In this document: in pieces, positions 24,849 through 54,103 of the stretch
How the letters are laid out: every line of letters begins with the position of its first letter
Numbering within the stretch: position 1 is the first letter of the stretch
Assembly: GCA_965219995.1 (NCBI GenBank)
Contig: CBDCOX010000002.1
Location: 2,784,001 to 2,848,000 of the forward strand
Direction: 5' to 3'
DNA length: 64,000 nucleotides
Source: Candidatus Latescibacterota bacterium
GTDB lineage: Bacteria > Latescibacterota > UBA2968 > GCA-2709665
The notes under the pieces: generated by a model
Told to the model about the DNA's origin: nothing
Database searches by the model: none
What the model saw: the letters and a program-made list of their open reading frames with translations, nothing else
Program-made: the position numbers and the translations under genes

Positions 24849-27140
24849 CTATGTTTTCCTTCTGTCAATCGCCATCAACAATGGGGGAAGAAGCAGAAAA
24901 TCGGCAACCAGCGCGAAGATGATCGTGATCGTGACCAGAAGGCCGAGCGCCCAACTCACCTGGAACCCCGACGTTGCGAATACCAGAAAGCCCGCCGACA
25001 GAACCGTAGTGGTTGTCCATAAAGCATGGCCCACGGTGCGGAACGAGTACCGAACGGCTTCAGGCGCGGCGTGACCCTCGCGTCGGGCCTTAAGGTACTT
25101 GCTCAGAAAGTGGATCGTATCGTCCACGACAATCCCGAAAACCACGGCGATGACGACCGATGACGCGATGCCCACGTTGCCCACGAGATATCCCCACAGC
25201 CCGAAACTCATGATCGCCGGGATGAAATTAGGCAGAAGACTCAGGAGCCCGATCCGTACGCTCTTGAAGATCCAGATCAGAATAAACGAAATAAGCGCCA
25301 TGGCCAGAATTGTCCCTCGAAGCATGCTCTTGATGTTCCGCAGCGACAGGTGCGCAAACACAATGCTCAGCCCCGATGCCTCCTGGGTGAAACCGGGCGC
25401 GTTCGTGCGAAGCCAGACCTGTGCGCGTTCATCGAGTTCGCGCAGGTCCCGAGACCATGCGTTTCTGGTGGTGACGACCATGCGCGTCGCGGATTTGGCG
25501 ACGTCGATGCGATCGTTGAGATCGCTTCCGAAGGGCAGCGACAGTTCGTATAGCAACAGGTACTGCGCGGCGAGCTCAGGGTCTTCTGGCAGACGATGAA
25601 AAGCCGGGTCGTCGCCGTGCATGTTCATGTTCAGCCGTTTCATGATGTCCGAAAACACCTGGACGTGAGTCACCTCGGGTTGCTGCCTGTACCACCCGGC
25701 GAAAGCATCGATCCGGCGCAGATATTCCGGGTCGGTGATGCCGCCGTCCCGTCCTGCGTTCAATGAATACTCCAGTTTGTCCAAACCGGTCAGATTCTCG
25801 ATGATAAAGTCCGTATCGCGGCGGAACTCGTAACGGTCATCGAAATATTGAGCCATGTTGTCGCTCAATTCAATGCGGGAAACGCCCAGGACGAGCACGG
25901 CGACAACCAGTACGAGGGCGACCAGCAGGAATCTGCTCCTGGCGATCACGAAGTCGGCGAAACGGTCGAGAAAATGGGTATCGCGAGGACCTCGGGCGGA
26001 CACACGCAACGGCAGGATGGATAACAGGGCGGGCAGCAGGGTGACTGAAAACACGAAAGCACACAAGACACCGAACGCAACGTAGTTACCCAATGTATGG
26101 AAAGGCGGTGAATCCGACGCATTCAGGCTGAGGAACCCCACCGCGGTTGTGACGGAGGTAATGAATACCGGATGGACGTTGATCCGGAATGACTCGACGA
26201 TTGCCGCATTTCTCTCCAGGCCGCGCCTCATGCCAAGCAAAACACTCGTGACGATATGTATGGCGTCCGCCATGGCGATCACCATGACGATAATGGGTAT
26301 TCCCGCGTTCGTGGGGCTGAACACAACGCGGCTCCAGCCGGCGAACCCCACGGTGGTATTGACGACGAACACGATCACGGCAACGATGGCCAACGTGCCG
26401 GAGACCGAGCGCAGAAGGACAATCGTTGCGCCTATAATTATCACAAACACGATCGGCGTGAGGGTCCGCATGTCATCCTGCGTGGCGTCGGAAAAGGTCC
26501 TGTTCATGACGACGTCGCCCGTGACGTGGTAGGCGAACTGCGGATGCCGGACCCGGGCCTGGTTCAGAAGCGAAGCCAGATAGTCGGTAATTTCAACGAC
26601 GGCCCGATCCGGATTCTCCGGAAGGACGAAGTTTATGACGACACCAGCCGTACGACCGTCATGGGAAACCAGGCGGCCGGCGATTTCGACGGCGTTCAGC
26701 GCGGTCTTTTCGATTCGCGCCAGATCGGCGTCACTCAGCCCCTGCGCATCCTCCACAAGAGGCGCTACGACAAGTTCATCCTCGAACGCCTCGCTGTGGG
26801 TATAGTTGGTGAGGGAGTTGACGCGGCTGGAGTACGGGGCGCGCCACGCGGAATCGGTCATATCCACAACCGCGCCGAGACCTTCGCGCGTGAACACGGA
26901 GCCCTCTTCGGGGGTAATGGCAATCAATGCCGCGTTGGACGTGGAGTACGTGTTCTCTAACTCATCGAAAGCGAGGAGCTGCGGATTGTCTTCGCTGAAG
27001 AGTACGCGGTAGTCGTTTGTCACCGTGATGAAACGAGCACCGGCCGTCATGGCGGCCATGAGCAGCGTCGCCAGCACGAGCACAATCCACCGGTAGCGCA
27101 GAATGGCATCTACGTATCGGTCCATGAGCACAATAGTCAT
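24849..27140 (-). CDS. MMPL/RND family transporter
   Basis: About 763 aa with two repeats of TM bundle + periplasmic domain; GIVVDDTIHF and TSVTTAVGF motifs. Confidence 0.92.
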   Translation of the reverse strand: MTIVLMDRYVDAILRYRWIVLVLATLLMAAMTAGARFITVTNDYRVLFSEDNPQLLAFDELENTYSTSNAALIAITPEEGSVFTREGLGAVVDMTDSAWRAPYSSRVNSLTNYTHSEAFEDELVVAPLVEDAQGLSDADLARIEKTALNAVEIAGRLVSHDGRTAGVVINFVLPENPDRAVVEITDYLASLLNQARVRHPQFAYHVTGDVVMNRTFSDATQDDMRTLTPIVFVIIIGATIVLLRSVSGTLAIVAVIVFVVNTTVGFAGWSRVVFSPTNAGIPIIVMVIAMADAIHIVTSVLLGMRRGLERNAAIVESFRINVHPVFITSVTTAVGFLSLNASDSPPFHTLGNYVAFGVLCAFVFSVTLLPALLSILPLRVSARGPRDTHFLDRFADFVIARSRFLLVALVLVVAVLVLGVSRIELSDNMAQYFDDRYEFRRDTDFIIENLTGLDKLEYSLNAGRDGGITDPEYLRRIDAFAGWYRQQPEVTHVQVFSDIMKRLNMNMHGDDPAFHRLPEDPELAAQYLLLYELSLPFGSDLNDRIDVAKSATRMVVTTRNAWSRDLRELDERAQVWLRTNAPGFTQEASGLSIVFAHLSLRNIKSMLRGTILAMALISFILIWIFKSVRIGLLSLLPNFIPAIMSFGLWGYLVGNVGIASSVVIAVVFGIVVDDTIHFLSKYLKARREGHAAPEAVRYSFRTVGHALWTTTTVLSAGFLVFATSGFQVSWALGLLVTITIIFALVADFLLLPPLLMAIDRRKT

Positions 27141-27300
27141 CGCCGCTCCCATTCCTGTCCGGAAGCGGCGATGACCTGACCGTCATTTGCGGACGACAGC
27201 GTCAACTCCGGTAGATTCAGAGGCATTCGTTCCATTCTGGTTGAATTCTACTGCTACCCATTCGCCGTCGAAGGGCTGTTTTCCCAGGCGCAGGCATCGC

Positions 27301-33006: not shown

Positions 33007-34137
33007 ATGGAGCGGTTCGGACAGCTCGAACTGGACTACCTGGCGAAAGTAATCGCCAGCGGGACGCTGAACAGCAAGACAGGCAAGTTCACGTCGCAAT
33101 TGGAGGAGCGATTTGCAAAGTGGGTGGGCGCCGAATACGCCGTGGCGATGAACAGCGCGATGAGCGTGCTGCACACCGCTGTGGCGGCCTCGGGCGTTGG
33201 ACCGGGCGTGGAGGTGATATGCGACCCGGTGGTCCACTTCGGGGGCGCGGCGGTGATGTACCACAACGGGGTGCCGGTATTCTGCGATATTTTCGAGGAT
33301 AGCTGGAATATGGATCCCGAATCGCTGGAGGCGTCCATCACGGAACACACGGGCGCCGTCATCTGCACGCCGATGTGGGGCAATCCGCCGGACTACGACG
33401 GGATTCTCCGGGTGGCGGACAGGTACGGCCTGCCCGTGATCGAAGACGTGGCGCATGGGGTCGGGGGTTCGTACCGCGGCAGGCCCCTGGGAACGCTTGG
33501 GGCGATCGGATCGTACAGCTTTCAGGAGGCCAAACACCTCACCAGCGGCGACGGCGGCATGGCGGTGACCGACCGTCCCGAAATGCTGCAGAAGATGCTC
33601 GAGATGAGGATCATCAAGACGTCGCTCGGCTGGAATTATCGCATGACGGAACTACAGGCCGGTGTGATGCTGGCGCAGATGGACCGGGCCGATGACATCA
33701 TCGCGGCGCATCACAGGGCCGGGGCGCTCTACCGCGAGGCCGCGAAGGAATCCCCCTGGCTCGTTCCCCAGCGCGTGGACGAGGGATGCGTCAACGCATA
33801 TCACGCCGTTGCCTTTCGGTTCGAAGGCGACAGCGTGGGAATTCCGGTGGAACGTTTCCAGAAGTCCATGGCCGAGCACGGATGTCCGGTCTCGATCGGG
33901 TACAAGCGACGTTCTGCCGCTGAGGATCCGATTTTCACGGAGGTCCTCGCCTATGGGAAAGGGTGTCCCATCCGGTGCCCCCATTACGGAGGCCAGGCGC
34001 GCTACGGACCAGGCGTGACGCCCGTGGCCGACCGCGCGGTCCCCCGCATGGTGGTGATGCCGATGGATGTGTATACACCGGGGAAGACCGAGGAGTACGC
34101 GGAACGGATCCAGGCGGGGTTGAGCGCGCTTGCGTGA
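33007..34137 (+). CDS. DegT/DnrJ/EryC1/StrS PLP-dependent aminotransferase
   Basis: VIEDVAH, SFQEAKHLTSGDGG (PLP lysine) and GWNYRMTELQA motifs. Confidence 0.93.
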   Translation: MERFGQLELDYLAKVIASGTLNSKTGKFTSQLEERFAKWVGAEYAVAMNSAMSVLHTAVAASGVGPGVEVICDPVVHFGGAAVMYHNGVPVFCDIFEDSWNMDPESLEASITEHTGAVICTPMWGNPPDYDGILRVADRYGLPVIEDVAHGVGGSYRGRPLGTLGAIGSYSFQEAKHLTSGDGGMAVTDRPEMLQKMLEMRIIKTSLGWNYRMTELQAGVMLAQMDRADDIIAAHHRAGALYREAAKESPWLVPQRVDEGCVNAYHAVAFRFEGDSVGIPVERFQKSMAEHGCPVSIGYKRRSAAEDPIFTEVLAYGKGCPIRCPHYGGQARYGPGVTPVADRAVPRMVVMPMDVYTPGKTEEYAERIQAGLSALA

Positions 34138-34219
34138 TCGATGGGCGAGGGTTTCCAGTTCTGGATCGGTTCCATTACTTGGGGGGAACCGGCAGCCACG
34201 ACGGATCGCGCTCCGAGAT

Positions 34220-35137
34220 CTACTGATAAATCCTTTCCAGGTTGAAATTTCCAATGTCCTCCGACTCGACTGCACGGATGATCTGTTCCCGGGTCGAACC
34301 GACAAATGTAAACGGACGGGATAATCGTACGAGGAGTGCGAACCGGTACATCTCCATGTCTATCTCACCATATCCCTCCAGTATATGATCTCGCGTCCAT
34401 GACAGCCCGAAGCGCATGCCCCAGCACTCCCAGTTTGTGAAGTCCCACATTGGCCAGCCTACACCGATTTCCTCCACGTCGACAAACCCGGCGACTTTCG
34501 GCTTCGAACGATCAAAGACGATGATATTGCTGAAGTGGGTATCCGTAAAACACAGCGTCCTGATCAATTCTCCGGGAATGGACGCAGCGTATTTCTCAAA
34601 CAATCGCCGGTATTTTCTTTCGAAATCCTTATCGATCAACTCCGCCTCACGAAGCTGCCCGACGAAATCCTCCATGCGCTGATACGCGCCGGCTCTGGTG
34701 TGCTTGAAAATATACTCCGGGATCGGCGCGGCCACGTTTACGTCGTGCAAGCGGCGCAGCGCCCGGCCCAGCTCCCGACAGAGCGCGTGGCTCTTCTCTC
34801 CCGGTCCTTCTCTTCCGATGATCTCGGATGATGGCACCGCCTCGATCCAGGATATCAGCAGACAGCCGTTCGGAAAATCCGAATCGGGTTCAATCGTTGC
34901 CTCTACGTGCGGACACGGCACGCCCCCCTTGCGCATCTGCTCGTACGCCCATTTCTGCCGAAGAAGCGGGATTGGACTGTTCTCGATTCGAAGTAGATGC
35001 CGTCGCCCTGACTTGCACGTCACCAACAGGTCATCTCGTTCGTCTTTTACAGGCGCAACGGAGACAACAGGAGATTTGTCGATGGACTCGATCAGGTCCC
35101 GCAGTTTGGAATTGAGACCGCTTTGGGGGGATGTCAT
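34220..35137 (-). CDS. Aminoglycoside phosphotransferase-like kinase
   Basis: GVPCP, LGRALRRLH, CFTDTHFSNI and GFVDVE motifs. Confidence 0.75.
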   Translation of the reverse strand: MTSPQSGLNSKLRDLIESIDKSPVVSVAPVKDERDDLLVTCKSGRRHLLRIENSPIPLLRQKWAYEQMRKGGVPCPHVEATIEPDSDFPNGCLLISWIEAVPSSEIIGREGPGEKSHALCRELGRALRRLHDVNVAAPIPEYIFKHTRAGAYQRMEDFVGQLREAELIDKDFERKYRRLFEKYAASIPGELIRTLCFTDTHFSNIIVFDRSKPKVAGFVDVEEIGVGWPMWDFTNWECWGMRFGLSWTRDHILEGYGEIDMEMYRFALLVRLSRPFTFVGSTREQIIRAVESEDIGNFNLERIYQ

Positions 35138-35365
35138 TGCGGGTCTTTGCGAAGTGATTCGGTGCCCGGCGAGTTCACAAGGGATGTGGTTCGGCGAATA
35201 CCGCCGTTTCCGTCTCGAGTGGATCGGCGTTCAAAACGGACGACAAGAGAACATACGTCTCCGGGCAGGCCAATCGATCCCGACACCGGGAAATGACTGA
35301 TGTTTCAGCACGCTCCAGCAACGGATCGGCGGACCATTGAAAGTCGAGATGCCGCACCGTTGTGT

Positions 35366-36226
35366 TCAATGACCGTGCACTTCTTCCATTCCGTGAACGG
35401 CGCTGGATTCAACGAAATAGAGGGCGTAGGCCAGACCGATTCCCACAAGAAGCGCTGCAATGAGTTTGCCGCGGTCGTGGCTGTGGAAATGGATCTCGGG
35501 CAGCAGATCGCTCAAAGCAATGCACAGGAACGCGCCGGCGGCAAATGCAAGCACATAGCCGACGACCGAGCCATCGTCCGGGCCGAGAAGTCCCACGCCC
35601 CAGAAACTGGCAAGAGCGACAATCGGACACAGTGAAGCAAACGCGACGTTCGCCGCCGCGCGCGCGCGCGCGCCGTGGCCCGCGAACTTCATCATGCCGA
35701 TGATGGAATACGCATCCAGCGGCTTGTGAAGCACGATGGCGAGGAAAACACCGAGCGCGGGCAGCGCCCCTCCGTCTTCATGCGGCGAACTCACCCGCAT
35801 GCTGGTGCCCAGGGCGACGCCTTCTGTTACGGTATGTACCCCGAGGCCCATGGCGACCCCGAACATGCTTCGCGTCTGCGCGCCTGAATGTCCGTGGTCG
35901 TGATGGTCGTACAGTTCGCCCGCCTCGGTACTGAAGTCGTGCTGATGGAAATGGAAGATGCGCAGCAGGAATATCATCAGGATCATGCCGAAGACCACCC
36001 ACGCCACGGCTCTTTCAACATTTCCGGGTCCGCTGATCCGTTCCAGACTGTGAGGGAAGAGATGGTACATGGCGATTCCCAGGATAAAACCCGCCACGAG
36101 GCTCATCAGGACCTGTATCCGCGTATGGGTCATGGATCCCAGAACGGCCAGTCTCCCGCCGATGAAGGAAACGGCAAAGATACCGAGTGAATATCCGAAA
36201 ATGATCAATAACCCGTCGTAATCCAC
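35366..36226 (-). CDS. ZIP family divalent metal transporter
   Basis: His-rich loop HFHQH..DHHDHGH; HTVTEGVALG, LHKPLD and SDLLPEIH motifs. Confidence 0.92.
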   Translation of the reverse strand: MDYDGLLIIFGYSLGIFAVSFIGGRLAVLGSMTHTRIQVLMSLVAGFILGIAMYHLFPHSLERISGPGNVERAVAWVVFGMILMIFLLRIFHFHQHDFSTEAGELYDHHDHGHSGAQTRSMFGVAMGLGVHTVTEGVALGTSMRVSSPHEDGGALPALGVFLAIVLHKPLDAYSIIGMMKFAGHGARARAAANVAFASLCPIVALASFWGVGLLGPDDGSVVGYVLAFAAGAFLCIALSDLLPEIHFHSHDRGKLIAALLVGIGLAYALYFVESSAVHGMEEVHGH

Positions 36227-36459
36227 AATAACCTCACCTCAATTTTCCCGGGGAAGCCGCACTGTCCTCTCCGGCACGTGTGCCCGCGCACGTGCCCTGG
36301 CGGCGACTCAATTTGGCCGGATGCCAGACCGGAAACTCCCTCAAGTAACCCCGTGGTCGCACAAACCGTTTCTTCAATAGGAATTGTTCGGGGGCAACCC
36401 ATGATTTCCGCCCCGGATTGCCCCCGAAGAATCCATGTCCCGCGACGACCGAAAGGATT

Positions 36460-36948
36460 TCAGAAGAACCACATCAGAAGTATAATGGCGCTCAGCCCAC
36501 CCAGCATGAACCCCCCTATGCTGACCGCGCCCGACGCCAGTGAATAGTCGGCGATACGAAACGTCTGATCGCCCAGAGTGAAGAGTACCTCGGTACGGTT
36601 GATCTCCCCGTCGACGAATCGTTTCAGTGCCTCTTCCGCGCTGTGGGCTTCTTTCACCGAGACCATGGCCACCAGAATCATCGTCGCCGCGGACGCGAGG
36701 GTTCCGATCGCAAAAATTAGCAGTGTCGTGAGGGCCACCCAGTGGTAGGCCGCGTCCTCGGTTCCCGAAGGAGAACTCATGAATCCGATAATCAGCGCGG
36801 CGCCGCCCGCGTTGCCCAGCAGCAACAGGCGGGCCGACTCGGTAATCAGCCTGAACATCGTACCGCGCCGCATGTGGACGACCTTGTAGAGTTCGCGCAA
36901 CCACTCTTCGCCGATTTCTTCAACGGTAAACTCATCCACCTTTTTCAA
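36460..36948 (-). CDS. Hypothetical membrane protein (about 3 TM)
   Basis: 162 aa; LLLGNAGGAALIIG helix; starts 3 nt after the upstream stop. Confidence 0.7.
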   Translation of the reverse strand: MKKVDEFTVEEIGEEWLRELYKVVHMRRGTMFRLITESARLLLLGNAGGAALIIGFMSSPSGTEDAAYHWVALTTLLIFAIGTLASAATMILVAMVSVKEAHSAEEALKRFVDGEINRTEVLFTLGDQTFRIADYSLASGAVSIGGFMLGGLSAIILLMWFF

Positions 36949-36951
36949 GGG

Positions 36952-38103
36952 TCAATCTCCTCCGAGATCGATCAGCCGGACGTAGCGCGAACCTGAGTTG
37001 GTTCCGGGCTCGAACGCGAGCTTCCAATCGTCGATTGCAACCGGTCCCGACGTCAATGCCTGTTCCAGGAAGTTCTCCCGCGTCAACCTGTCGCCCATGC
37101 GCCCCAGCACCTCAACGACGAAGCGGCCGAGAATATATCCTTCGAGCGAGACCTCGTTGATGCCGTAACTCCCGTTCCCCGCCTGTTGCCTTTCCGCCGC
37201 CCCCATGGCGCGATGGAAATTGCGCACAACCTGCATGTTCGTATCTTCCGCATCGGGCATCACTTCGGAGACCAGGATTCTGTCGTTCGGCGCGTCGATT
37301 CTCTTCTTCAACTCGTATGACAGGACGAATGACAGGTTGGCCATGATGTATCTGTAGCCCAGGGAGTGCGCCAGGTTGATGATTTCAGCGTTGGAAGCAT
37401 AGGCGCCCACGATCATGATGGCTTCCAGGTCCGCCTTGGCCAGGGCGAACAGACTTGCCTGTACTGCGTGTGTATTCCTCGAAAAGGCAGTCTTCCCCAG
37501 AATGGGAATCCCCATCCCGTCGAGCACCGACTTATAGTTCCTGAGGACGGAGCGCCCGAAAGCGTCGTCCTGATAGATAATGCCGAACCGCTTCTTGCCG
37601 CGCTTCCTCAGGATGTGGTTCACCAGAACGCGGGTCTCGTCCAGATAACCGGCTCTGAGGTTTACGACGTTGGGAAACCGCCTGGCGTTGCGCAGAAACG
37701 AGGCGCCCGTAAAGGGACCCACAAAGGGAATCGTCGCCGTCTTCAGCACCGGCGCAATGCGTTTCGCCGTGGGTGTACCCACACCGCCGATGACGGCGAA
37801 CACGTCGTTTTCGGCTGCGAAACGTTCCGCGTTGGCGGCCGCCAGTTCCGGCTCGTACGCGTCGTCCAGGGAAATCAGCCTGAGAATTCTGCCGTTGACG
37901 CCGCCGCGGCGGTTCGCCTCGTGCAAGGCCGCGCGAATGCCTGCCCGATAGTTGAATCCCAACTGCCTGTTCGGCCCGGAGAAACACGCGCTTTGACCGA
38001 AGACAATCGTCGTATCGCTGACACCTTGCGCCGCGAGGGACGTCGCGACAGGCAGCAGCGCGAGCCAGAATACCAATAGCCCACTGACGATGTGTGCCGC
38101 CAT
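36952..38103 (-). CDS. Type I periplasmic binding protein (LivJ/LivK-like)
   Basis: Signal peptide; GQSACFSGP, NRRGGVNGR, DDAYEP, GGVGTPT and YQDDAFG motifs. Confidence 0.88.
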   Translation of the reverse strand: MAAHIVSGLLVFWLALLPVATSLAAQGVSDTTIVFGQSACFSGPNRQLGFNYRAGIRAALHEANRRGGVNGRILRLISLDDAYEPELAAANAERFAAENDVFAVIGGVGTPTAKRIAPVLKTATIPFVGPFTGASFLRNARRFPNVVNLRAGYLDETRVLVNHILRKRGKKRFGIIYQDDAFGRSVLRNYKSVLDGMGIPILGKTAFSRNTHAVQASLFALAKADLEAIMIVGAYASNAEIINLAHSLGYRYIMANLSFVLSYELKKRIDAPNDRILVSEVMPDAEDTNMQVVRNFHRAMGAAERQQAGNGSYGINEVSLEGYILGRFVVEVLGRMGDRLTRENFLEQALTSGPVAIDDWKLAFEPGTNSGSRYVRLIDLGGD

Positions 38104-38133
38104 TCGCTACCCTCTTCCCGAGGCGTGTCACAT

Positions 38134-39570
38134 CTACTTCGACGTGGCGCCACCCTCCCCCTTCGTTCCCGATTTGCCGGCAGCCACGTCCTGCTTCCCC
38201 TGCTTGACGGCGGCCTTCGCTTTCTTTTTCTTGCCCTGCCCCGGGGCGACCTTCGTTTTCTTCACGGATTTGACGCCTGTCATTGCCTGCGTCGTCGACC
38301 TTGCATCCTCCTCAGGGAGCACCTCCACCATCGGCTTCTCCTGCTGCTGCCGGCTGAACCGTTTGCCTCGCACAACGTGGCTATGAGAGAATATCGAAGG
38401 TGTGTCGAAAATGAGCGACCGGGGGTTGGCCACGAGCAGGTGATCGCGTTCCGCGCGCACTCTGTGAAACTGGCCGTCGAGCGTGAGTCTGTCCTCATCG
38501 ACGTTTTCGATCTTATGTATATCGGGCATTTGCGTTGATGATAACGCCATCCTGCCGGCCGCCGCGCCACCTCCGGCGGGCGGTTCCCCCAGCGCCAGGT
38601 CCGCAGGCGTGAATCCGTCTCCCACGCCGTCGATCATGTTGATATCGATGGCAGACTGATTGGCCGGGTTGACCGCCGCCAGGCTTGCCTCCGAGAAAAT
38701 CTGGCGCATTCGATCCCAGTAGCGCGTGATTCGAACGTGCGAGGGTTGCTTCCGGTATTCCGACAGCAGTGCGGTAAACGCTCCGGCGCTGCTTCCGGCC
38801 TGCACAATCCGCTCTTGCGCCCTCGCCTTTGCCTCCAGCACCAGCGCCTCGGCCTGTCCGCGGCTGCGGGCGATCAACTGCTCCTTCTGGCGGTTGGCGT
38901 CACTGACCGCCTTTGCACGTTCCGCGAACGCGTCGCTGACGTCTCGAAACGCGGCGATGGTTTCCTCAATCGGGCGCACGTCGACGATGTCGAGCGAAAC
39001 AAGTTCGATCCCGATCTCGCGGTTCTCGAGCCAGCCGGTAACCCGTTCGAACAACCGGCTTTGAATTATGTTTCGATTCGAGGTGAGAATCAGGTCGATG
39101 AAATTCTCGCCCAGGACGTCGATCAACTCTTCCCTGGTGTATGCGGTCAACATCGCAGTGGGATCGGAGGAAGTGAACAGGAAGTTTTTGAGATTGTCGA
39201 TCCGGTACTGAAGGGCCACGTCCACTTCGAGCAGATTCACGTCTCCGGACAATATCGTGAAGTTGACCTTGCTTCCCTCCCGGCTGGCCACCTGGAACCG
39301 GGTGACCCGCTTGACCTTGCGGAGGTGTACCTTGTCGATGAAGGGGATGCAATACCGTATTCCGGGGCTGACGTTTTCTTCGACCAACCTGCCGAATCGG
39401 AGCACAACGCCGCGTTCTTCCTTCTTGACAATGTAGAACCCGCTGGCCAGGATGCATACGACCGAGGCGACCGCCGTCCAGACCAGGATTCGCCGCTGGT
39501 GTTTCGAGTAGTAATCGAACACGGCGTAGATGATCCGCGTACTTTGCGGCAATGACGTCTGTTCACTCAT
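38134..39570 (-). CDS. HflK-like SPFH/band-7 protein with a long C-terminal extension
   Basis: ERGVVLRFG, LSGDVNLLEVDVALQYRI, DVRP...AAFRDV and ARSRGQAE motifs. Confidence 0.85.
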   Translation of the reverse strand: MSEQTSLPQSTRIIYAVFDYYSKHQRRILVWTAVASVVCILASGFYIVKKEERGVVLRFGRLVEENVSPGIRYCIPFIDKVHLRKVKRVTRFQVASREGSKVNFTILSGDVNLLEVDVALQYRIDNLKNFLFTSSDPTAMLTAYTREELIDVLGENFIDLILTSNRNIIQSRLFERVTGWLENREIGIELVSLDIVDVRPIEETIAAFRDVSDAFAERAKAVSDANRQKEQLIARSRGQAEALVLEAKARAQERIVQAGSSAGAFTALLSEYRKQPSHVRITRYWDRMRQIFSEASLAAVNPANQSAIDINMIDGVGDGFTPADLALGEPPAGGGAAAGRMALSSTQMPDIHKIENVDEDRLTLDGQFHRVRAERDHLLVANPRSLIFDTPSIFSHSHVVRGKRFSRQQQEKPMVEVLPEEDARSTTQAMTGVKSVKKTKVAPGQGKKKKAKAAVKQGKQDVAAGKSGTKGEGGATSK

Positions 39571-39588
39571 TTCAGTCGAACTCTCGGA

Positions 39589-40479
39589 TTATCGGGGTGA
39601 GGACCTGCTGTTGAGGTATTTGAAGAGCTCGTTGTCGGCCGGCAGCATCAACGTGGTGTTCCGGTCGATGATCAGATCGTAGCTGTCCAGAGCGCGGATG
39701 AAGCTGTAGAAACCCGGATCCTGCCGGTACGCCTTGCCCAGCAGCGCCATCGCCTCGGCCTCGGCCTTACCGAGAATGGCCGTTGCCTCCGCGTGGGCGT
39801 CCGCCAGCAGCTTTTCGTGTTCGTTAATGGCCAGGGCCTCGATGCGCAGGGCCATTTCCTCGCCCTCGCTGCGGTATCGGGCGGCAATGCGTGCCCGTTC
39901 CGCGATCATTCGCTGAATGACGCTCGGGCGGTTCTCCGTCGGCAGCGTGTATTCGACGATGCCTGCTTCGATCACGTCGATCCCGTAGCTTTCTCTCGCA
40001 ATTGGCGCGATTCGAGCGTGTATTTCCCGCGAAGCCTCGTTCAGGTCTTCGTGTTCCAGTCCCAGCCCGATGAAGGCGTCCAGAGATTTGTTGCTGATGA
40101 TGATCCCGCTGCTGGACAGATAGAGATCCTGCAATCGCTCGACGGCGTTCTTGCCGGTGCGGATCGCCTCCACGAAGAGAATCGGGTCCACGGTCTTCCA
40201 GAGCAGGTATCCGTCGACGCGAACGCTTTTCTGATCGTCGGTGATCAACTCGTGGGGGACGTTCGTCAGCGTATGGATGCGTCGATCCACCTTATAAATT
40301 CTGGAAATCGGGCGGGGCCACTTCACGTGCAATCCCGGTTGCCTCACCGGCGGCGAGATCCTGCCGAAGTGTGTCAATACGCCCTGTTGGGTTTCGTGGA
40401 TAATGTAGATGCTGTCGTAGACGATTGCGCCGACAACCACGGCGAGGGTCGCGGTAATCGTGGCTTTCTTGAGCGTCAT
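39589..40479 (-). CDS. HflC-like SPFH/band-7 protein
   Basis: QPGLHVKWP, LITDDQK, RMIAERARIAARYRSEGEE and DPGFYSFIRALDSY motifs. Confidence 0.88.
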   Translation of the reverse strand: MTLKKATITATLAVVVGAIVYDSIYIIHETQQGVLTHFGRISPPVRQPGLHVKWPRPISRIYKVDRRIHTLTNVPHELITDDQKSVRVDGYLLWKTVDPILFVEAIRTGKNAVERLQDLYLSSSGIIISNKSLDAFIGLGLEHEDLNEASREIHARIAPIARESYGIDVIEAGIVEYTLPTENRPSVIQRMIAERARIAARYRSEGEEMALRIEALAINEHEKLLADAHAEATAILGKAEAEAMALLGKAYRQDPGFYSFIRALDSYDLIIDRNTTLMLPADNELFKYLNSRSSPR

Positions 40480-40599
40480 TGCCTTTCCTCGTCAATTAGG
40501 GCGTGCGGGGCGCCCGGTGTCAACGGAATGTCTCTCTATGCTTTCCGGCCGGCATGCGGCTCCGCTGCAAAATGACCGGCCGGCAATGCTTCTTTGAGA

Positions 40600-42912
40600 T
40601 CACGGTTTCGACTTCGGAACGGCCTTCTTTCCGTGCCTGGGAGACGCGCCGTGGCTGGCGCCTGCGGAGTTTCTCTTCCACAGCGCGACCTTTTCGAGAC
40701 TCTTCTTGTTTGGAACGATAATCTTGGGATTGCCGGACAGCGCCGTTTCCAGTTTTTCCCGCCAAAGCATGTTCCGCAAAACGCCCGGCGCGCTTCTGAC
40801 GGCTTTGGCTACCGTTGAAATGGCATCGGCCTCGGCGGCTGAGGTCTTCACTTTCCGATAGGCCTCGCCGTCGGCCTGCTGCACCTCCCACGCCGCGTTT
40901 CCGTGCGCCTGTGGCACCAGCGATACCAGGAAACGCTGAGCGTTTACGATGATGCGCTCCCTGTCCTCCTGCGCGCTGGAAACATCCCTGAAAGCGCTCA
41001 TGGTCTCCGCCACGGGGCTGACGTCCAGCAGGTTGATCTTGACGACTTCAACGGTTTTCAGCACCGGATTCGTGAAATGTACGTCCACGTCGAAGGAATC
41101 GGTGAGGTGCTCTTCAAGCGTTTCGCGATGCACGTTCAGCAGTTTCTCGAGGTCCCTCGCGGAAATGAAGGAGCGGATATGGGCCTTCATAACGTCGGCG
41201 ATGACCTTCTGTGGATCCCCGGTCCGATAATGGTAATTATACGGGTCCTTGACCCGATACTGGACGTTGACGGTCAGGGAAAGCAGGTTGAGGTCGCCCG
41301 AGACGTACTCTTCCGGCGTTTCGCACAGGATGGACTTCACTTCCCGTACCGGCCATTTGTCGACCTTGACGAAGGGCCAGGGGGCGAGATAGCTCAAGCC
41401 CGGCTGGATGTCACGCCAGTAGACTTCGCCCAAAAGCCTGCCGTAGCCTACCGAATTGGGAGGAATGGTTGTGAATCCGCTGGCCAGGAAAAGGACGAGC
41501 AGCAGCACCCAGAGCATCTTGCCCATGGGTGTTGCGGGAGTAATGATCCCCCTGAAGCTCCGGTTGCGGGTCAGACGCTCCCAGGCCTGGCGCCAGGGCT
41601 TCGACAGGGGCCGGATGTTCAACAGCAGGTCTTCCCACCCGCTGCGGAGCGCGCCCGCACGGAAACGCCAGACGATGAGCGCGATGAGAATGAGGCCTGA
41701 CCCCCACTGAAGGATCTGTATCGTCGGGGATTCCGAGGGGCCAAGGTACACCGGTATCGTAAAACCGGTGGCAATCAGCAGGGCGTCGATCAGAATACCG
41801 AGCGCCACCGTGACGGCGATGACCGCCGCGACGTATATGGTTGCGAAACGAGCGCCGAACTGGCTGACGATAATCGCGATCGTACCCGTATTGGTGGCCG
41901 GCCCGGTCATCAGAAAAATCAGCGCGGCGCCAGGGCTGAATCCCTTGGCGACGAGGGCCGCCGCGATCGGCGTGCTCGCGGATGCGCAGATATAGAGAGG
42001 GACGCCGACCAGCACCATCACGGGATAGGAGACCCAGCGGGCGTATTCGTTCGTCATCAGATCGCCCGGTATCACCAGAAAGAGCACGCCGCCCAGGGCC
42101 ACGCCAACCAGCAGCGCGAAGAGGATGTCGTCCGCAATCTCCACGAAACCGTAGTGAAAGACGTGCTTCACCAGCTTTTTGAAGTCCAGCGCCTGATCGT
42201 CTTCCGAGGGCGAGGCCTTTTCCGCCGCGGACGCCTCCACCGCGTCGCGGTAAAAGGCAGGCTTCACCCAGGAAAGGGACTTCCATCGCCCGGCCATGGT
42301 CGCAACGTTCTTCAGCCATTGCACGAAAAGGCCCTTCAGCCGCGAAAAGCTGACGTAGCAGTCGTCAGTTTCGGGAATGAGGGGTTCGTGCGAACCGTGG
42401 TCATGGTCGTGATCGTGGTCGTGCCCGTGATCATGGTCATGGTCATGCCCATGTCCGTCGTGGCTGTGGTCCGACGCGGTTTCTTCAGGGTCGTTGCGTA
42501 TCAGGCCGATACAGAAGATGCCGGCGACGACTGCCGTGATGAAACTGATGACCGGCCGGACGACCGCGGCGACGAATCCGAAGAAGGCGTTTGTGACCAG
42601 GATCGAGTCCGCCCCCGTCTCCGGAGCGGTTATCAGGAAAGACATGCAGGACGAACGGGACGCACCCTTCCGCCGCATCTCGGCGACCACGGGGACAACG
42701 GAACAACTGCACAAAGGCACGGGTACGCCGACGGCCGAACTCACCGCAACGGATTTCAGGCTGTCGTCCTTGAGCCACCGGAGGATGGCCTCACGGGAGA
42801 TGAATACATGGATGACGCCCGACAGGAACAGGCCCAGCAGCAGCATGGGCGCCAGCAACAGGGACGACATCCAGAGAAAGTCGAAAAAACTGATCAGGGT
42901 CTGCTGTACCAC
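40600..42912 (-). CDS. Fusion of a DUF318/SO_0444-type metal permease (His-rich loop) with an HflK-like SPFH domain
   Basis: PLCSCSVVP, APETGADS, (HD)n tract, YICASASTP and GPATN in the N-terminal part; VSGDLNLL..VQYRV and AFRDVSSAQED in the C-terminal part. Confidence 0.85.
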   Translation of the reverse strand: MVQQTLISFFDFLWMSSLLLAPMLLLGLFLSGVIHVFISREAILRWLKDDSLKSVAVSSAVGVPVPLCSCSVVPVVAEMRRKGASRSSCMSFLITAPETGADSILVTNAFFGFVAAVVRPVISFITAVVAGIFCIGLIRNDPEETASDHSHDGHGHDHDHDHGHDHDHDHDHGSHEPLIPETDDCYVSFSRLKGLFVQWLKNVATMAGRWKSLSWVKPAFYRDAVEASAAEKASPSEDDQALDFKKLVKHVFHYGFVEIADDILFALLVGVALGGVLFLVIPGDLMTNEYARWVSYPVMVLVGVPLYICASASTPIAAALVAKGFSPGAALIFLMTGPATNTGTIAIIVSQFGARFATIYVAAVIAVTVALGILIDALLIATGFTIPVYLGPSESPTIQILQWGSGLILIALIVWRFRAGALRSGWEDLLLNIRPLSKPWRQAWERLTRNRSFRGIITPATPMGKMLWVLLLVLFLASGFTTIPPNSVGYGRLLGEVYWRDIQPGLSYLAPWPFVKVDKWPVREVKSILCETPEEYVSGDLNLLSLTVNVQYRVKDPYNYHYRTGDPQKVIADVMKAHIRSFISARDLEKLLNVHRETLEEHLTDSFDVDVHFTNPVLKTVEVVKINLLDVSPVAETMSAFRDVSSAQEDRERIIVNAQRFLVSLVPQAHGNAAWEVQQADGEAYRKVKTSAAEADAISTVAKAVRSAPGVLRNMLWREKLETALSGNPKIIVPNKKSLEKVALWKRNSAGASHGASPRHGKKAVPKSKP

Positions 42913-43037
42913 GCAATCGCCTCCACCGCATTGGGTGATGCAAGGGGACGCCTGGCAGGCGTTTCGGAAACCGGGAACGGGAGGCGCCGATCACAACGAC
43001 ACGCGAGCAGCTTCGTCGACAGGCCCGTTCACTGATG

Positions 43038-43068
43038 AAAAAGCCCGCTCCCCTTCAGGGAACAGGGC
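43038..43068 (-). terminator. Hairpin + U-tract at the 5' end of the permease leader (terminator or 5' stabiliser)
   Basis: Minus strand GCCCTGTTCCCT-GAA-GGGGAGCGGGC followed by TTTTT. Confidence 0.45.
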
Positions 43069-43070
43069 GG

Positions 43071-43101
43071 CAATAATAGTGATTATTGAATGTCAAGTCA
43101 A
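43071..43101 (-). promoter_or_regulatory. Sigma70 promoter overlapped by a Fur/Zur-like palindrome
   Basis: TTGACT-N17-TATTAT (43101-43073); perfect 7-4-7 inverted repeat CAATAAT-AGTG-ATTATTG at 43071-43088. Confidence 0.65.
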
Positions 43102-43168
43102 GGGCTACGTAGGTTATTATGTGCGTATTATTAATATAGTATATTTCGTCGCCGCTGCAAGGGAAGAT

Positions 43169-43360
43169 ATGCATATGGACGCACTCCGGTTTGTCAGGTC
43201 CGGCGGTCCATCGGCGGAAGGCCGCTCACGGTGTTATGCGACCATTCAGGCTGCCCTCGATGACCGGAGCGGGAGCGATACTCTGACATTGGCACAGGGT
43301 CCGTTTCACGGTCCGCCAGACACGGGGTCGCAGCCGGCCCGGCTCGTACTTCTGACATAG
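43169..43360 (+). pseudogene. Truncated N-terminal remnant of a right-handed beta-helix (pectin-lyase fold) gene
   Basis: YATIQAALD..GSDTLTLAQGPF cap motif, then runs into the antisense strand of the GNAT gene and stops after 63 aa. Confidence 0.45.
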
Positions 43361-44142
43361 CGCGGTCGGTTGTGTATCGGGCGGAACCCGACCCTGCCAT
43401 ATACCCTTTCGGCAACGCTTCCGGCCGCCACTTCAAGTCCGGTCCATCGATTGCCCATCTCCCGGGAGTCCGCGACCGCACGCGCGGTCAAACCGGACGC
43501 CACGCCCCTGCGGCGGTATTCCGGCAGCGTGCCGACGAAGTCCACGCAACCCACGCCGTATTCCGTGTAGAGCAAGGCGGTTCCCGCCGGCTTTCCATCC
43601 ACGGTTGCGAGGTAGAGCCGTACTGCGGGAATGTCGAGCACCCTTCGGCCCAGTACGCCTACGTCGGCCGGAAAATCGAAGCTGCGGCACATGGTGTCCG
43701 CCCAGATTCCGTACCGGCCCGGTACCGGTTCTTCGATCCGAACGGATTCCGGAACGACGGGCTGTGCTGCCCGGTCGCAACGCATCGCCACGGCCTGCAT
43801 GGCAAGACTGAAACCGCGTCGTTCCAGACGTTCGGCAAGATCTGAGGGCCGGTCCAGGGGCGACAGGGTAAACGCGCATTCAAAGTCCCTCTCCCGGAAG
43901 TAGTCAAGGGCGCTGTCGATCAATGTATCCACCCCCGTCTCCGGCACGTCTATCTGTACGACACGATGCAGCATGGGCACTTTGACGTCATCGTGGCTGA
44001 ACGCAGTGGCCCCTCCCAGGTCGTGGCTGTCGCACCAGCGTGCACGGAAGCCGACCCAGAGTCTTTCGAAAATTTCCGTGAACCGGTCAGGCACGGGACT
44101 TGAAACCCTCCGGGAATCTGTTACGTTTCGTGGCGCCGGCAC
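43306..44142 (-). CDS. GNAT family N-acetyltransferase
   Basis: VGTLPEYRRRGVAS acetyl-CoA motif; VYGRVGF; start uncertain. Confidence 0.85.
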   Translation of the reverse strand: MPAPRNVTDSRRVSSPVPDRFTEIFERLWVGFRARWCDSHDLGGATAFSHDDVKVPMLHRVVQIDVPETGVDTLIDSALDYFRERDFECAFTLSPLDRPSDLAERLERRGFSLAMQAVAMRCDRAAQPVVPESVRIEEPVPGRYGIWADTMCRSFDFPADVGVLGRRVLDIPAVRLYLATVDGKPAGTALLYTEYGVGCVDFVGTLPEYRRRGVASGLTARAVADSREMGNRWTGLEVAAGSVAERVYGRVGFRPIHNRPRYVRSTSRAGCDPVSGGP

Positions 44143-44374
44143 AATCGTGATGGCTTGCTCTCGATTGACTACCTGTCGAATTCAAACCGGACGTCCTTTG
44201 CGTTCGCCTGCCACATTTGTATATTGTCTTGCCTCTGGAAGCGGGTTGGCCAGCCGGGAATTGCAACTTCCCGCCCTGTGTTCCGTCTTAATGGTCGTAT
44301 CGGACGATCGGTCCGCCGTGGCGGACGACTTCGCCGGCTCCTTATAACATCTGCGGAAAACGAGGTCTTGCAAA

Positions 44375-45364
44375 ATGAGGTTTATCGTAACCGGCAGCAA
44401 CGGCTTCATCGGCCAGAATTCATGCCGCCGCCTGGCCGCACTTGGACACGAAGTCATCGGTGTGGACGATCTGTCTTCCGGGACCCCTCCCAACGGCGTG
44501 AACGGCGTACATTACCACAACCGCAGCGTCGTGGATGCGGATTGGCTCGTGGGACTCCTGAAAGACACGGTCCCGGACGCGGTCCTTCACCTGGCGGCAA
44601 AGCCGAGGGTCCCGTATTCGGTGCGGAATCCGCTGCGCAGCGCCGAGGCGAACGCGATGGGAACGCTGTCTGTTCTCAGCGGGATTCTAAAGGCTGAACT
44701 GGCAGAGAAAACCCGGCTGGTTTTCGCCAGCAGCAGCGCGGTTTTCGGCGACGCGACGGCCCTCCCGACCCCGGAGACATACCCCTCGAATCCACAGTCG
44801 CCGTACGCGCTGGCAAAGCTTCAGGGCGAGCAGTGGTGCGACCTGTTTCATCGATTGTACGGCCTGGACGTGGTGAGCCTGCGGTATTTCAATGTGTTCG
44901 GACCCGGCGCGCTGTACGGGGGCGCCTATTCCACGGTCCTGTCGGCCTGGCCCTACCATCTCTTCGTAGATCCTTCCAACCGGCCCTTCCTGGAGGGCGA
45001 CGGAACCCAGACACGGGACTTCTGCTTTGTCGACAACGTCGTCGAGGCGAATATCGCCGCGGCCACCCGGGAACGCGGCTTCGCGGCGGACGTTCTGAAC
45101 GTGGGACAGGGCGAGGCCCACACCCTGCTTGAGGTCAAGGGAATTCTGGAGGAAGTTGCCGGCAGGAAGCTCAATCTTGAACGCCGGCCGCCCCGTGTTG
45201 GCGACGTTGCCCACACCCTGGCCGACATCAGGCGCACGCGGTTGGAACTCGGGTTCGAACCGTCGACCGACTTCACCACCCAGGTCGAACGAACGGCGAT
45301 ATGGTTCCGTGACTGTTATCCGAAGGGGCGTTCGAAAGGTCAGCGTGGCAAGGGGAGCGGATGA
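44375..45364 (+). CDS. NAD-dependent epimerase/dehydratase (UDP-sugar 4-epimerase-like)
   Basis: TGSNGFIG, ASSSAVFG, YALAK, LRYFNVFGP and GDGTQTRDF motifs. Confidence 0.93.
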   Translation: MRFIVTGSNGFIGQNSCRRLAALGHEVIGVDDLSSGTPPNGVNGVHYHNRSVVDADWLVGLLKDTVPDAVLHLAAKPRVPYSVRNPLRSAEANAMGTLSVLSGILKAELAEKTRLVFASSSAVFGDATALPTPETYPSNPQSPYALAKLQGEQWCDLFHRLYGLDVVSLRYFNVFGPGALYGGAYSTVLSAWPYHLFVDPSNRPFLEGDGTQTRDFCFVDNVVEANIAAATRERGFAADVLNVGQGEAHTLLEVKGILEEVAGRKLNLERRPPRVGDVAHTLADIRRTRLELGFEPSTDFTTQVERTAIWFRDCYPKGRSKGQRGKGSG

Positions 45365-45414
45365 AGTCGCCGCGATCGCCTGAAAGTGGAAACCAGAAGC
45401 TCGGGCTGGAAGAT

Positions 45415-45491
45415 TGGTGGGCGATACTGGATTCGAACCAGTGACCTCCTGCTTGTAAGGCAGGCGCTCTAACCGGCTGAGCTAACCGCCC
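45415..45491 (-). tRNA. tRNA-Val (anticodon TAC), CCA encoded
   Basis: GGGCGGTTAGCTCAGCCGGTTAGAGCG-CCTGC-CTTACAA-GCAGG-AGGTCACTGGTTCGAATCCAGTATCGCCCACCA. Confidence 0.97.
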
Positions 45492-45793
45492 ACGGACTTG
45501 CCGGACGCCTCGTCGGGCGGTTTTCTCGATTCGCCCAGCAGCAGGCCGAGCGGGATCAGCACGCAATAGCCGATTACCAGCAGAATGGGCGCAAGCGTGA
45601 GTGACAGGAAACCGTCGACCGGGGGTTGGGACAGGCAAAGGTAACCAATCAGTATTGTCAGTACCCCCGCCCCCAGGAAGGTCCAGTTCCTGCGGGTATA
45701 TGGCAGCGGACTCCCGGCCGGCTCCCGCCGCTGTGTCTGAGCCCTGCGTCCGGTGCGGCCGCGAGGGCGTCGTCCTGGATTGCGCGTCGGCAT
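45482..45793 (-). CDS. Small two-TM membrane protein (DUF3098-like)
   Basis: RRNWTFLGAGVLTILIGY...GFLSLTLAPILLVIGY; stop codon lies inside the tRNA gene. Confidence 0.7.
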   Translation of the reverse strand: MPTRNPGRRPRGRTGRRAQTQRREPAGSPLPYTRRNWTFLGAGVLTILIGYLCLSQPPVDGFLSLTLAPILLVIGYCVLIPLGLLLGESRKPPDEASGKSVGG

Positions 45794-45814
45794 CCGATTA
45801 ACCCGTGTGGTCGA

Positions 45815-46168
45815 TTACGTGGCTCGTTTCTCCGCAATCCTCGCGGCCCGGCCCTGCAGCTCGCGCAGGTAGGTAATGCGGTTCCTGCGGACCTTACCGC
45901 TACGAATCCGCTCGACTTTCGCAACCCGCGGTGAGTGGAGTGGGAAAATCCTTTCAACGCCCACACCGCCCACCACCATCTTTCGTACGGTAAAGGTCTC
46001 GTGGATCCCGTGGCCCCGACGCTGGATCACCACGCCTTCGAACAACTGCGTGCGCTCCTTCTCGCCTTCCACCACCCGCACGTGCACCCGCACGGTGTCC
46101 CCGGCCCCGAATGCCGGCACGTCGGACTTGATCTGTTCCTCCGATAACGATCTCAACAACGCATCCAT
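45815..46168 (-). CDS. rplS: 50S ribosomal protein L19
   Basis: [29 protein letters not shown] and [11 protein letters not shown] motifs. Confidence 0.97.
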
Positions 46169-53320: not shown

Positions 53321-54103
53321 CTATTCCCTGATTCTGGTCGACTCATCGGTACGCGCCTGCTCAATGTGTCTGCCGGTGAAGCCGACGGCAAATCGCAGGT
53401 CTGCGCCGCGCAGGTCTGCATTCCGGAGGTTGGCTTTGTATAGATCGGTGTTTTGCATTCGGGCCTTGACGAGGCTCGCGCACCGCAGGTCGGCCTGCAT
53501 CAGGTCGGCATTCCGCAGCCTTGCGCTTCGCAGATCGGCGCTCCTGAGGTCCACGCCCTGAAGGTTCGCACCCTCGAGGTTCGCGCTTCTCAGATTGGCG
53601 CCGCGCAGGTCCGCGTTGAGAAGATTGGCGTCCTGGAGGCGCGCCTTCCGCAGATCGGCTCCGTGAAGCGTGGCATCGCGAAGGTTGGCGCCACGCAGTG
53701 TGGCGTCCCGAAGCCGGGCCCCGGAAAGTTCGGCATTCGTCAGGTCGGCGAGTTCCAGGTCCGCGGGCGCGAGTCCGGCGTCTCTGAGGTTTGCGCCGCG
53801 GAACAGGGCTCCCTGGAGGCGGGCGCCGGAGAGGTCTGCGTCCCGGAGGTTTGCATCGCGGAAGTTGGCCTCGTAAAGCCTGGCGCGCTGGAGATTGGCG
53901 CCGTGCAGGACCGCGTTCTGGAACCGTGCGCCGCTAAGGATGGCTTCGCTCAGGTCGGCGCTTTCGAGCCTCGCGCCCTGGAGCTCCGCACGGTTCAGAT
54001 TCACGCCGGACAATCTGGCCCGTTCTCCTGTTGCTCCTTCGGAATCGATCCACGCCCGGTGCCGGTCGATGACAAGACGGAGCTCAGCGGGTGACATTGG
54101 CAT
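53321..54103 (-). CDS. Pentapeptide repeat protein
   Basis: Long run of A(D/N/R)Lxx repeats after an HRAW...GERARL N-terminus. Confidence 0.93.
   Translation of the reverse strand: MPMSPAELRLVIDRHRAWIDSEGATGERARLSGVNLNRAELQGARLESADLSEAILSGARFQNAVLHGANLQRARLYEANFRDANLRDADLSGARLQGALFRGANLRDAGLAPADLELADLTNAELSGARLRDATLRGANLRDATLHGADLRKARLQDANLLNADLRGANLRSANLEGANLQGVDLRSADLRSARLRNADLMQADLRCASLVKARMQNTDLYKANLRNADLRGADLRFAVGFTGRHIEQARTDESTRIRE

Follow-up and report, generated by a model that had tools for sequence, protein, structure and literature searches.

Can a single bacterial gene encode both a metal permease and a membrane scaffold, and what would such a joined protein do? The question is raised by a window of 64,000 nucleotides (nt) from Candidatus Latescibacterota bacterium (contig CBDCOX010000002.1, positions 2,784,001 to 2,848,000; "the window" is this whole stretch). 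An earlier account made without database searches, here called the sequence-only reading, described one continuous open reading frame (ORF) of 770 amino acids (aa), in which a permease of the SO_0444 type is joined in frame to an HflK-like SPFH domain. SPFH proteins (HflK/C, stomatin, prohibitin, flotillin and erlin) form cages that fence membrane patches, and both the recruitment of clients by these cages and the effect of confinement are still debated. We find that the fusion is real and conserved, and that it heads a tight operon, in which genes for an HflC-like protein, a second HflK-like protein, an orphan periplasmic binding protein and a membrane protein of 162 aa follow. For the function of this five-gene module we lean, if narrowly, towards a periplasm-facing SPFH ring with a tethered metal permease, which would serve zinc homeostasis.

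A metal permease fused in frame to an HflK-like domain

The ORF starts with a GTG codon and is continuous over its whole length, as had been described (Table 1). The Pfam scan detects both expected domains: ArsP_1 (PF03773, also DUF318) at residues 10–375 (E 7.9e-45, 153.7 bits against a cut-off of 32.3) and Band_7 (PF01145) at residues 502–658 (E 9.5e-13, 49 bits against 23.6). The NCBIfam model CuZnOut_SO0444 (NF033936) matches residues 18–415 over its positions 6–349 of 351, with 322.4 bits above the cut-off of 300. All of the features pointed out earlier are present in the translation, namely the CSC motif, YICASASTP (residues 307–315) and GPATN (337–341), the His/Asp-rich loop, the extra transmembrane helix (TM), and the HflK-like motif SAFRDVSSAQEDRE (residues about 639–652).

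The two permease halves, residues 61–139 and 302–380, align when the translation and the helices of the AlphaFold2 (AF2) model are compared by eye. A part of PMC7176098 describes ArsP-family halves of about four helices each (4+4), and a part of bioRxiv 10.1101/2022.07.06.499078 deals with the standing of the CSC motif in SO_0444/ArsP-type transporters. C68, C70, C89, C185 and C309 are invariant in 69 sequences, as is the whole triplet C68-S69-C70. By hydropathy, about nine hydrophobic segments precede a Lys/Arg-rich loop (residues 416–455). Neither a sequence search nor a profile search returned a solved relative of the permease part, and there is none among the Foldseek matches listed, in which the SPFH part dominates.

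The His/Asp-rich loop lies within the central loop between the permease halves. The segment 140–187 varies in length from 21 to 64 residues in the 69 relatives and holds 4–21 His (median 12), and residues 141–173 are disordered and of low confidence in the AF2 model. A profile match of this loop to PA4063 (E 0.016) is a match of composition and was discarded. Contigs from the sequencing runs X1 and X6 show alternative joints at 42396–42447, within the (HD)n coding repeat, which indicates either strain-level length variation of the His loop or assembly collapse of the repeat.

The linker joins the last permease helix to the TM of the SPFH part. Because residues 416–455 contain 10 Lys/Arg, the positive-inside rule would place this loop in the cytoplasm and the SPFH part in the periplasm. 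The AF2 model, built on the 69 sequences (mean predicted local distance difference test score, pLDDT, 69.4; predicted template modelling score 0.49), contains an extra helix (396–419), a long helix (421–448) and a short TM (462–477). The SPFH region follows with strands at 480–554, helices up to 646, two long coiled-coil helices at 651–725 and a C-terminal helix. The top Foldseek match in the PDB is HflK (7vhq_E; E 1.3e-12, 271 columns, TM-score 0.57 on the target), and the next ranks are taken by HflC, QmcA, erlin, stomatin, prohibitin and flotillin cage subunits. Since the modelled anatomy and the Foldseek match both point to HflK, the fused part is, by the model, a complete HflK-type subunit and not a fragment. 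Sequence searches give the same relative: in a single-sequence search, the last 270 residues are matched to E. coli HflK from the solved FtsH-HflK/C structures at 1.2e-15, and a PDB profile search with the 69 relatives matches HflK of 7vhp at 2.3e-25.

A fusion of this kind could arise from an assembly or frameshift error that joins two neighbouring genes, and relatives of the fusion bear on this directly. They are encoded in 270 stretches of species-representative genomes; 80 loci were kept for analysis, all of which come from metagenome-assembled genomes (MAGs). The ORF is unbroken and longer than 700 aa in 72 of these 80 independent assemblies. Among the best 120 of 2094 protein matches, 116 carry both Pfam domains, and the other four are full length and listed with PF03773 only. 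With the SPFH part alone as query, 261 clusters are found at E≤1e-10; PF03773 is present in all 120 of the SPFH-part matches listed, the records of which give both domains for 116, PF03773 alone for 2 and PF01145 alone for 2. A search of the Atlas for entries without PF03773 gave only plain Band_7 clusters. A search among shorter proteins gave 67 matches, of which about 48 are 54–94% identical and mostly fragments, and the next matches are canonical HflK at 24–31%.

Other sequencing runs cover the junction as well. A 12,186-nt contig of run X1 spans 40400–42624 with 0 differences and 0 gaps, and a 974-nt contig from an RNA library (X19) spans 41117–42087 with 87 differences and 0 gaps, so that both cross the junction at about 41458–41766. 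The RNA-library contigs X19 and X20 are relatives of the gene at about 91% identity and are no proof of transcription, as DNA was possibly present in the library. The linker is itself conserved, with a column conservation of 0.67–0.68, compared with 0.87 and 0.88 for the permease halves, 0.70 for the SPFH domain and 0.79 for the coiled coil. What speaks for an artefact is one locus of the 80 (L037) with separate ORFs of 450 and 288 aa, together with a few SPFH-only proteins of about 300 aa and 57–71% identity that are located on long contigs (P0122, P0123 and P0130). The artefact is refuted by the loci, the domain records, the junction-spanning contigs and the conserved linker, and we give it practically no credence. 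Most of the homologues are thus full-length fusions and not two genes, and contigs cross the junction without gaps.

A five-gene operon next to a separate housekeeping pair

The order of the five genes is retained in 68 of the 80 loci, and four more are cut by a contig end (tblastn). The median gaps within the five genes are −4, 12, 1 and −4 nt, whereas 108 nt precede a ZIP gene that follows as a looser neighbour; start codons were picked by a simple rule, and the gap between the fusion and the HflC-like gene is based on 71 loci. In the window this first gap is 120 nt. The HflC-like and second HflK-like proteins each have a short basic N-terminus and one TM, as in periplasm-facing HflK/C. The HflC-like partner is 62–96% identical in 46 relatives and groups in the tree with the canonical HflC of the same genome. 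The second HflK-like partner is 24% identical to the fused SPFH part; its C-terminal extension (residues about 305–420) is conserved in 72 sequences, with H352, H369, E374, R375, SLIFD (385–389) and H396 invariant, and the Lys-rich tail behind it is poorly conserved. The extension may bind metal at the top of the ring.

The solved chain closest to the orphan binding protein is 4kv7 (2.3e-42), and no ABC permease or ATPase is annotated among the ORFs scanned in the window. The 162-aa protein has no Pfam or NCBIfam family at E≤0.01, NfeD included, and its Atlas clusters are named only 'hypothetical'; it forms only 32 representative clusters among 1.84 billion proteins. Its AF2 model consists of three long helices (pLDDT 83), and a fold search returns generic helical bundles with Z of at most 10.2, a result that is uninformative for long helices. 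E100, A101 and E105 are invariant and H102 nearly so (motif KEAHxAE) just past the second hydrophobic helix, and H69 and N46 are invariant too.

In seven loci (L025, L080, L082, L066, L076, L015 and L041), the SPFH domain and all four partners are jointly absent. L025 encodes a 440-aa permease followed by ZIP, while L015 and L041 retain a stump of the SPFH domain; in L015 a 627-aa truncated fusion is followed by ZIP. This joint loss bears on a second explanation, in which the fused SPFH domain is a stomatin-like regulator for the attached permease alone, without a closed hetero-oligomeric ring, and the HflC-like and HflK-like proteins are a separate pair. Stomatins modulate several transporters according to parts of PMC5383999 and PMC3790964, stomatin complexes associate with solute carriers (PMC13724742), and aquaporin 1 is bound to stomatin in the solved entry 9zd2. 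On the other hand, the partners are lost in 7 of 7 loci that have no fused SPFH domain, the stop codon of the fusion overlaps the start of the HflC-like gene in most loci, and the long helices of the coiled coil and the C-terminus, which serve in cage building, are retained in the fused domain. We therefore regard a regulator acting solely in cis as improbable.

The cassette is also distinct from the housekeeping proteins. The genome contains six Band_7 genes, and the fusion is its sole ArsP_1 gene; a canonical hflK (278 bits) and hflC sit elsewhere. The fused SPFH part and the second HflK-like protein are 28% and 31% identical to this canonical HflK, and the cassette SPFH proteins as a set are 24–35% identical to the canonical ones. 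A tree of 44 SPFH sequences has one clade each, with support of 100 and a long stem, for the fused domains, the HflK-like proteins and the HflC-like proteins of 12 genomes; it was built by a quick method, which calls for caution about long branches that meet.

These data also bear on the possibility that the SPFH part and its partners deliver the permease to FtsH as a permanently docked substrate, the level of which would be set by regulated proteolysis. HflK/C encircles FtsH and changes how membrane proteins are degraded, and the cage that encloses a membrane patch faces the periplasm and is built of alternating HflK and HflC subunits, as stated in parts of bioRxiv 10.1101/2024.08.09.604662 (entries 7vhp, 7vhq and 9cz2); the nearest solved relatives of the fused part are chains of such FtsH-HflK/C complexes. 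Against delivery to FtsH stand the separate housekeeping hflK-hflC pair, the low identity of the cassette proteins to the canonical ones, and the conserved flanking clusters, which include no ftsH-like gene. We consider it quite improbable.

Upstream of the fusion, a consensus scan finds a promoter-like site (TTGACT-17-TATTAT; 43073..43101, minus strand) with an inverted repeat, CAATAATcactATTATTG, over the −10 region. The site is conserved in 8 close relatives. AT-rich palindromes are located just upstream of it (region 43044–43101), and a hairpin with a T-run, which is absent in L006 and L009, lies directly downstream. The site with its inverted repeat may be the putative operator of some regulator.

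Table 1. Coordinates of the fusion gene, its parts, its operon partners and the adjacent ZIP gene in the window.
Feature	Position	Strand	Evidence
Fusion gene, 770 aa: SO_0444/ArsP-family permease, linker, TM and HflK-like SPFH domain	40600..42912	−	ORF, Pfam, NCBIfam
Permease part, residues 1–415: two homologous halves, CSC (68–70), YICASAS (307–313), extra TM 397–415	41668..42912	−	Pfam, NCBIfam, hydropathy
His/Asp-rich (HD)n loop SDHSHDGHGHDHDHDHGHDHDHDHDHGSH, residues 151–176 (about 149–177), within central loop 139–262	42385..42462	−	Translation
Linker, residues 416–485: conserved basic helix (10 K/R in 416–455), then HflK-type TM (about 462–485)	41458..41667	−	Hydropathy, charge counts, AF2
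HflK-like SPFH domain, coiled-coil helices and C-terminal helix, residues 486–770	40603..41457	−	Profile search, Foldseek, tree
HflC-like partner, 296 aa	39589..40479	−	TIGR01932, 157.4 bits (cut-off 134.4)
Second HflK-like partner, 478 aa, with conserved C-terminal extension and Lys-rich tail	38134..39570	−	TIGR01933, 164.7 bits (cut-off 159.4)
Orphan periplasmic binding protein, 383 aa, Peripla_BP_6, N-terminal signal-like segment	36952..38103	−	Pfam, E 1.7e-44
Cassette-specific membrane protein, 162 aa	36460..36948	−	ORF, AF2, occurrence
ZIP-family metal importer, looser cassette neighbour	35366..36226	−	Pfam Zip (PF02535), 73.4 bits (cut-off 35.1)

Spread between phyla and the metal genes around the cassette

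The 80 loci are labelled with at least eight phyla: Latescibacterota, Gemmatimonadota, Acidobacteriota, Verrucomicrobiota, Pseudomonadota (Alpha and Gamma), Dadabacteria/Thermodesulfobacteriota, Nitrospinota and Spirochaetota. In a shallow tree of 73 full-length fusions the phylum labels are clustered, with 10 changes against a minimum of 7. As a control for transfer, the HflC-like protein of the cassette was compared with the housekeeping HflC in the same genome pairs. For the cassette protein, identity is 64% with the counterpart in an alphaproteobacterial genome (L057) and 74% with the one in an Arenicellales genome (L035), whereas the housekeeping HflC of the window genome shares 41% with its best housekeeping counterpart in either. 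Within the phylum of the window, the linker plus SPFH part is detected at E≤1e-40 in 28 of 168 genomes, which belong to 6 of 49 genera; in its own genus, 12 of 14 genomes have it, three of them truncated. Because the cassette HflC is far more alike than the housekeeping HflC and few genera of the phylum have the part, we infer that the whole five-gene module has been transferred between phyla. Composition is no distinguishing mark, with a GC content of 0.56–0.63 across and beside the cassette. Two full cassettes from different tree clades (L074 and L077) are located on contigs of one Defluviicoccus MAG (JAJDVM01). The sequencing runs that carry the window DNA are labelled sponge metagenome, and others have coded organism names; X5 is a possible source run, and X6, which comes from a different study, contains near-identical pieces.

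To describe the neighbourhood, flanking ORFs within 4 kb of the 80 loci were clustered, and representatives were scanned with Pfam. A ZIP importer (40 loci) or a ZnuABC importer (21 loci) is found beside the cassette in 61 of 72 cassette loci, and no locus has both. Over all 80 loci, a flanking ZnuA gene is present in 20, a ZnuB-type permease gene in 19 and an ABC ATPase gene in 24. RND pumps are encoded beside 22 loci and are often accompanied by CusB-type adaptors (13 loci) and by outer-membrane factors (9 loci); HMA P-type ATPases are neighbours in 9. Because importers and exporters of metal adjoin the cassette across loci, the module is, judged by its neighbours, located within zinc-homeostasis gene clusters. 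Zinc is probably the metal that is carried.

Two directions of transport have to be weighed here. The fusion passes the cut-off of an efflux equivalog, and the permease is predicted to confer Zn/Cu tolerance by export. SO_0444 is required for growth under Zn or Cu stress in Shewanella and protects against both, and a zinc/copper tolerance phenotype is known only for this protein (PMC3219624). The other direction would make the module one for zinc shortage instead of detoxification: the permease would import zinc or metalate periplasmic proteins and would be co-expressed with the zinc importers. The mutually exclusive ZIP and ZnuABC genes beside the cassette fit this explanation, as does znuA directly upstream on the same strand in 11 loci (gaps −4 to 642 nt). 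In L068, moreover, a Zur-box core is matched perfectly 215 nt upstream. Over all loci this core is found at 3 mismatches in 11, compared with 7.5 expected from shuffled sequences, which is not significant, and the match in L068 is the only perfect one. Apart from the efflux equivalog, the flanking pumps also speak against zinc shortage, as the RND genes often lie immediately upstream in the same orientation. In L071–L075, the fusion has its own promoter-like site without the AT-rich box (e.g. TATATTATACTATA) that is present in the znuA promoter. We regard a module for zinc shortage as a serious but rather unlikely alternative, and export itself as an evenly balanced choice of direction.

In the same L071–L075 loci, what looks by eye like a gene for a Fur/Zur-family regulator is encoded on the reverse strand of the interval from the ABC ATPase gene to znuA. 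The spacers between znuA and the fusion were read through and have no box in common, and exact 7-bp palindromes upstream of the fusion occur only in scattered loci.

In the window, the flanks of the cassette are unrelated genes (GNAT, epimerase, tRNA, trmD, ffh and sugar-modifying genes). The tRNA gene (45418–45491, minus strand; Rfam 75.2 bits) is 2.5 kb upstream of the cassette; a scan of 34000–46000 with Rfam found only this tRNA, the second match being its opposite strand, far under the gathering score. A pentapeptide-repeat protein (53321–54103, minus strand; Pfam 328 bits) and an MMPL-family transporter (24849–27152, minus strand) are also encoded in the window, and neither is linked to the cassette.

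A proposed ring with a tethered permease

In the arrangement that we favour, the permease would be a member of the SO_0444/ArsP family that most likely carries Zn(II), perhaps Cu. From its last helix, the chain would pass via the conserved basic linker to the membrane anchor at the N-terminus of an HflK-type SPFH protein. The fused domain, the HflC-like protein and the second HflK-like protein would form an HflK/HflC-type ring or cage at the periplasmic face of the inner membrane. Given what is known of HflK/C cages, the anatomy of the fused part and the linkage of the genes, we think that the three SPFH proteins probably co-assemble, with some room for doubt. As the permease is covalently joined to a ring subunit, it would always reside within the membrane patch enclosed by the ring or along the edge of this patch. 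Two further components, the orphan binding protein and the membrane protein of 162 aa, would be fixed accessories of the assembly. The five genes would form a mobile unit that passes between phyla and acts in zinc homeostasis beside a ZIP or ZnuABC importer, often with RND or P-type efflux pumps adjoining. Following the family name, the permease would export metal from the cytoplasm, and the ring would control its surroundings or its activity.

The closest known system is the E. coli HflK/HflC cage with FtsH (7vhp, 7vhq, 7wi3, 9cz2 and 9paw). The fused part shares its fold and length, with one TM, an SPFH domain, a coiled coil and a C-terminal helix; as in E. coli hflK-hflC, an HflC-type gene follows, and the orientation is probably periplasm-facing. 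In contrast to E. coli HflK, the fused subunit has a whole multi-pass permease at its N-terminus, and the set adds a third SPFH paralogue, a binding protein and a small membrane protein. The fused part is also distant from canonical HflK, the genome has its own housekeeping pair, and any link of the fused part to FtsH would be putative. With the SO_0444/ArsP family (NF033936, PF03773, TC 2.A.119) the permease shares the equivalog score, the CSC motif, the two homologous halves and metal-related neighbours. SO_0444-type proteins are stand-alone and about 350 aa long, whereas the fusion adds an extra TM, a linker and an SPFH scaffold of 300 aa.

Other SPFH systems resemble the module in part. 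Stomatin, MEC-2 and podocin, for which the stomatin cup with aquaporin 1 (9zd2) is an example, likewise place an SPFH oligomer beside a transport protein and fence a membrane patch, and stomatin cups define isolated microdomains, as described in PMC13724742. The partners of stomatin-type proteins bind non-covalently and face the cytosol, whereas the client of the fusion is covalently joined and its scaffold is of the periplasm-facing HflK/C type. In the SPFH-NfeD operons (QmcA-YbbJ, 8z5g), an SPFH gene is coupled to a gene for a small membrane protein, as here, although the 162-aa protein matches no such family.

Several observations weigh against the arrangement that we favour. All of the support for the ring comes from homology and from gene linkage with joint loss. 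The fused domain is merely 24–28% identical to other HflK-type proteins and scores 133.9 bits against hflK TIGR01933 (residues 498–738), thereby missing the equivalog cut-off of 159.4, and because of this score it is filed as HflK-like and not as HflK. The AF2 model of the fusion is of only middling confidence and does not fix the number of permease membrane crossings, and hence the side of the His loop. Permease-only or truncated forms persist (L025, L080, L082, L015 and L041), in which the permease may work without a ring, or which may be decay products. The locus in which the two halves are separate ORFs (L037) is without an HflC-like gene. The metal neighbours are mixed, with importers (ZIP and ZnuABC) as well as exporters (RND pumps and P-type ATPases), and 11 of the 72 cassette loci have neither ZIP nor ZnuABC within 4 kb. 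Two of these 11 are cut by a contig end; for the other nine, 16 flanking ORFs from seven loci were scanned (L030 and L063 were left out), and 13 matched families that are not metal transporters. Finally, no regulator site is established for the cassette.

The sequence-only reading had proposed that the fusion ties the transporter physically to an SPFH oligomer. The tie holds, as a covalent in-frame join with HflK anatomy, a conserved linker and partners that are kept together, while the oligomer would follow from homology. A more far-reaching version of the assembly is a closed periplasmic SPFH chamber, in which wall subunits would each carry a permease that moves zinc in or out and the binding protein would be the soluble content. 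We consider this a long shot. If true, it would describe a small protein-bounded metal compartment of the envelope that is passed between unrelated bacteria of sponge metagenomes.

Among the titles and abstracts listed from the literature on these families, there was no paper on the fusion, and a search of the sponge and symbiont literature for HflK and zinc returned none. The words permease, transporter and fused are absent from a 2009 survey of prokaryotic SPFH proteins (PMC2636767). In public annotation, the relatives of the fusion go by the name 'SO_0444 family Cu/Zn efflux transporter' alone, so that the scaffold half stays out of sight, and one JGI name covers both halves.

An SPFH scaffold with a covalent client and a dedicated operon is thus real, widespread and unstudied; its mechanism is one that we still infer. 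Since one client is fixed to one subunit and a defined set of partners is kept, the module offers a natural handle on how SPFH cages hold their clients, with natural permease-only and truncated versions available as controls. The number of clients per ring, their position inside or outside, and the effect of confinement on transport become testable with five genes. The module adds an unstudied element to bacterial zinc handling and would provide an example of a whole membrane module that moves between phyla.

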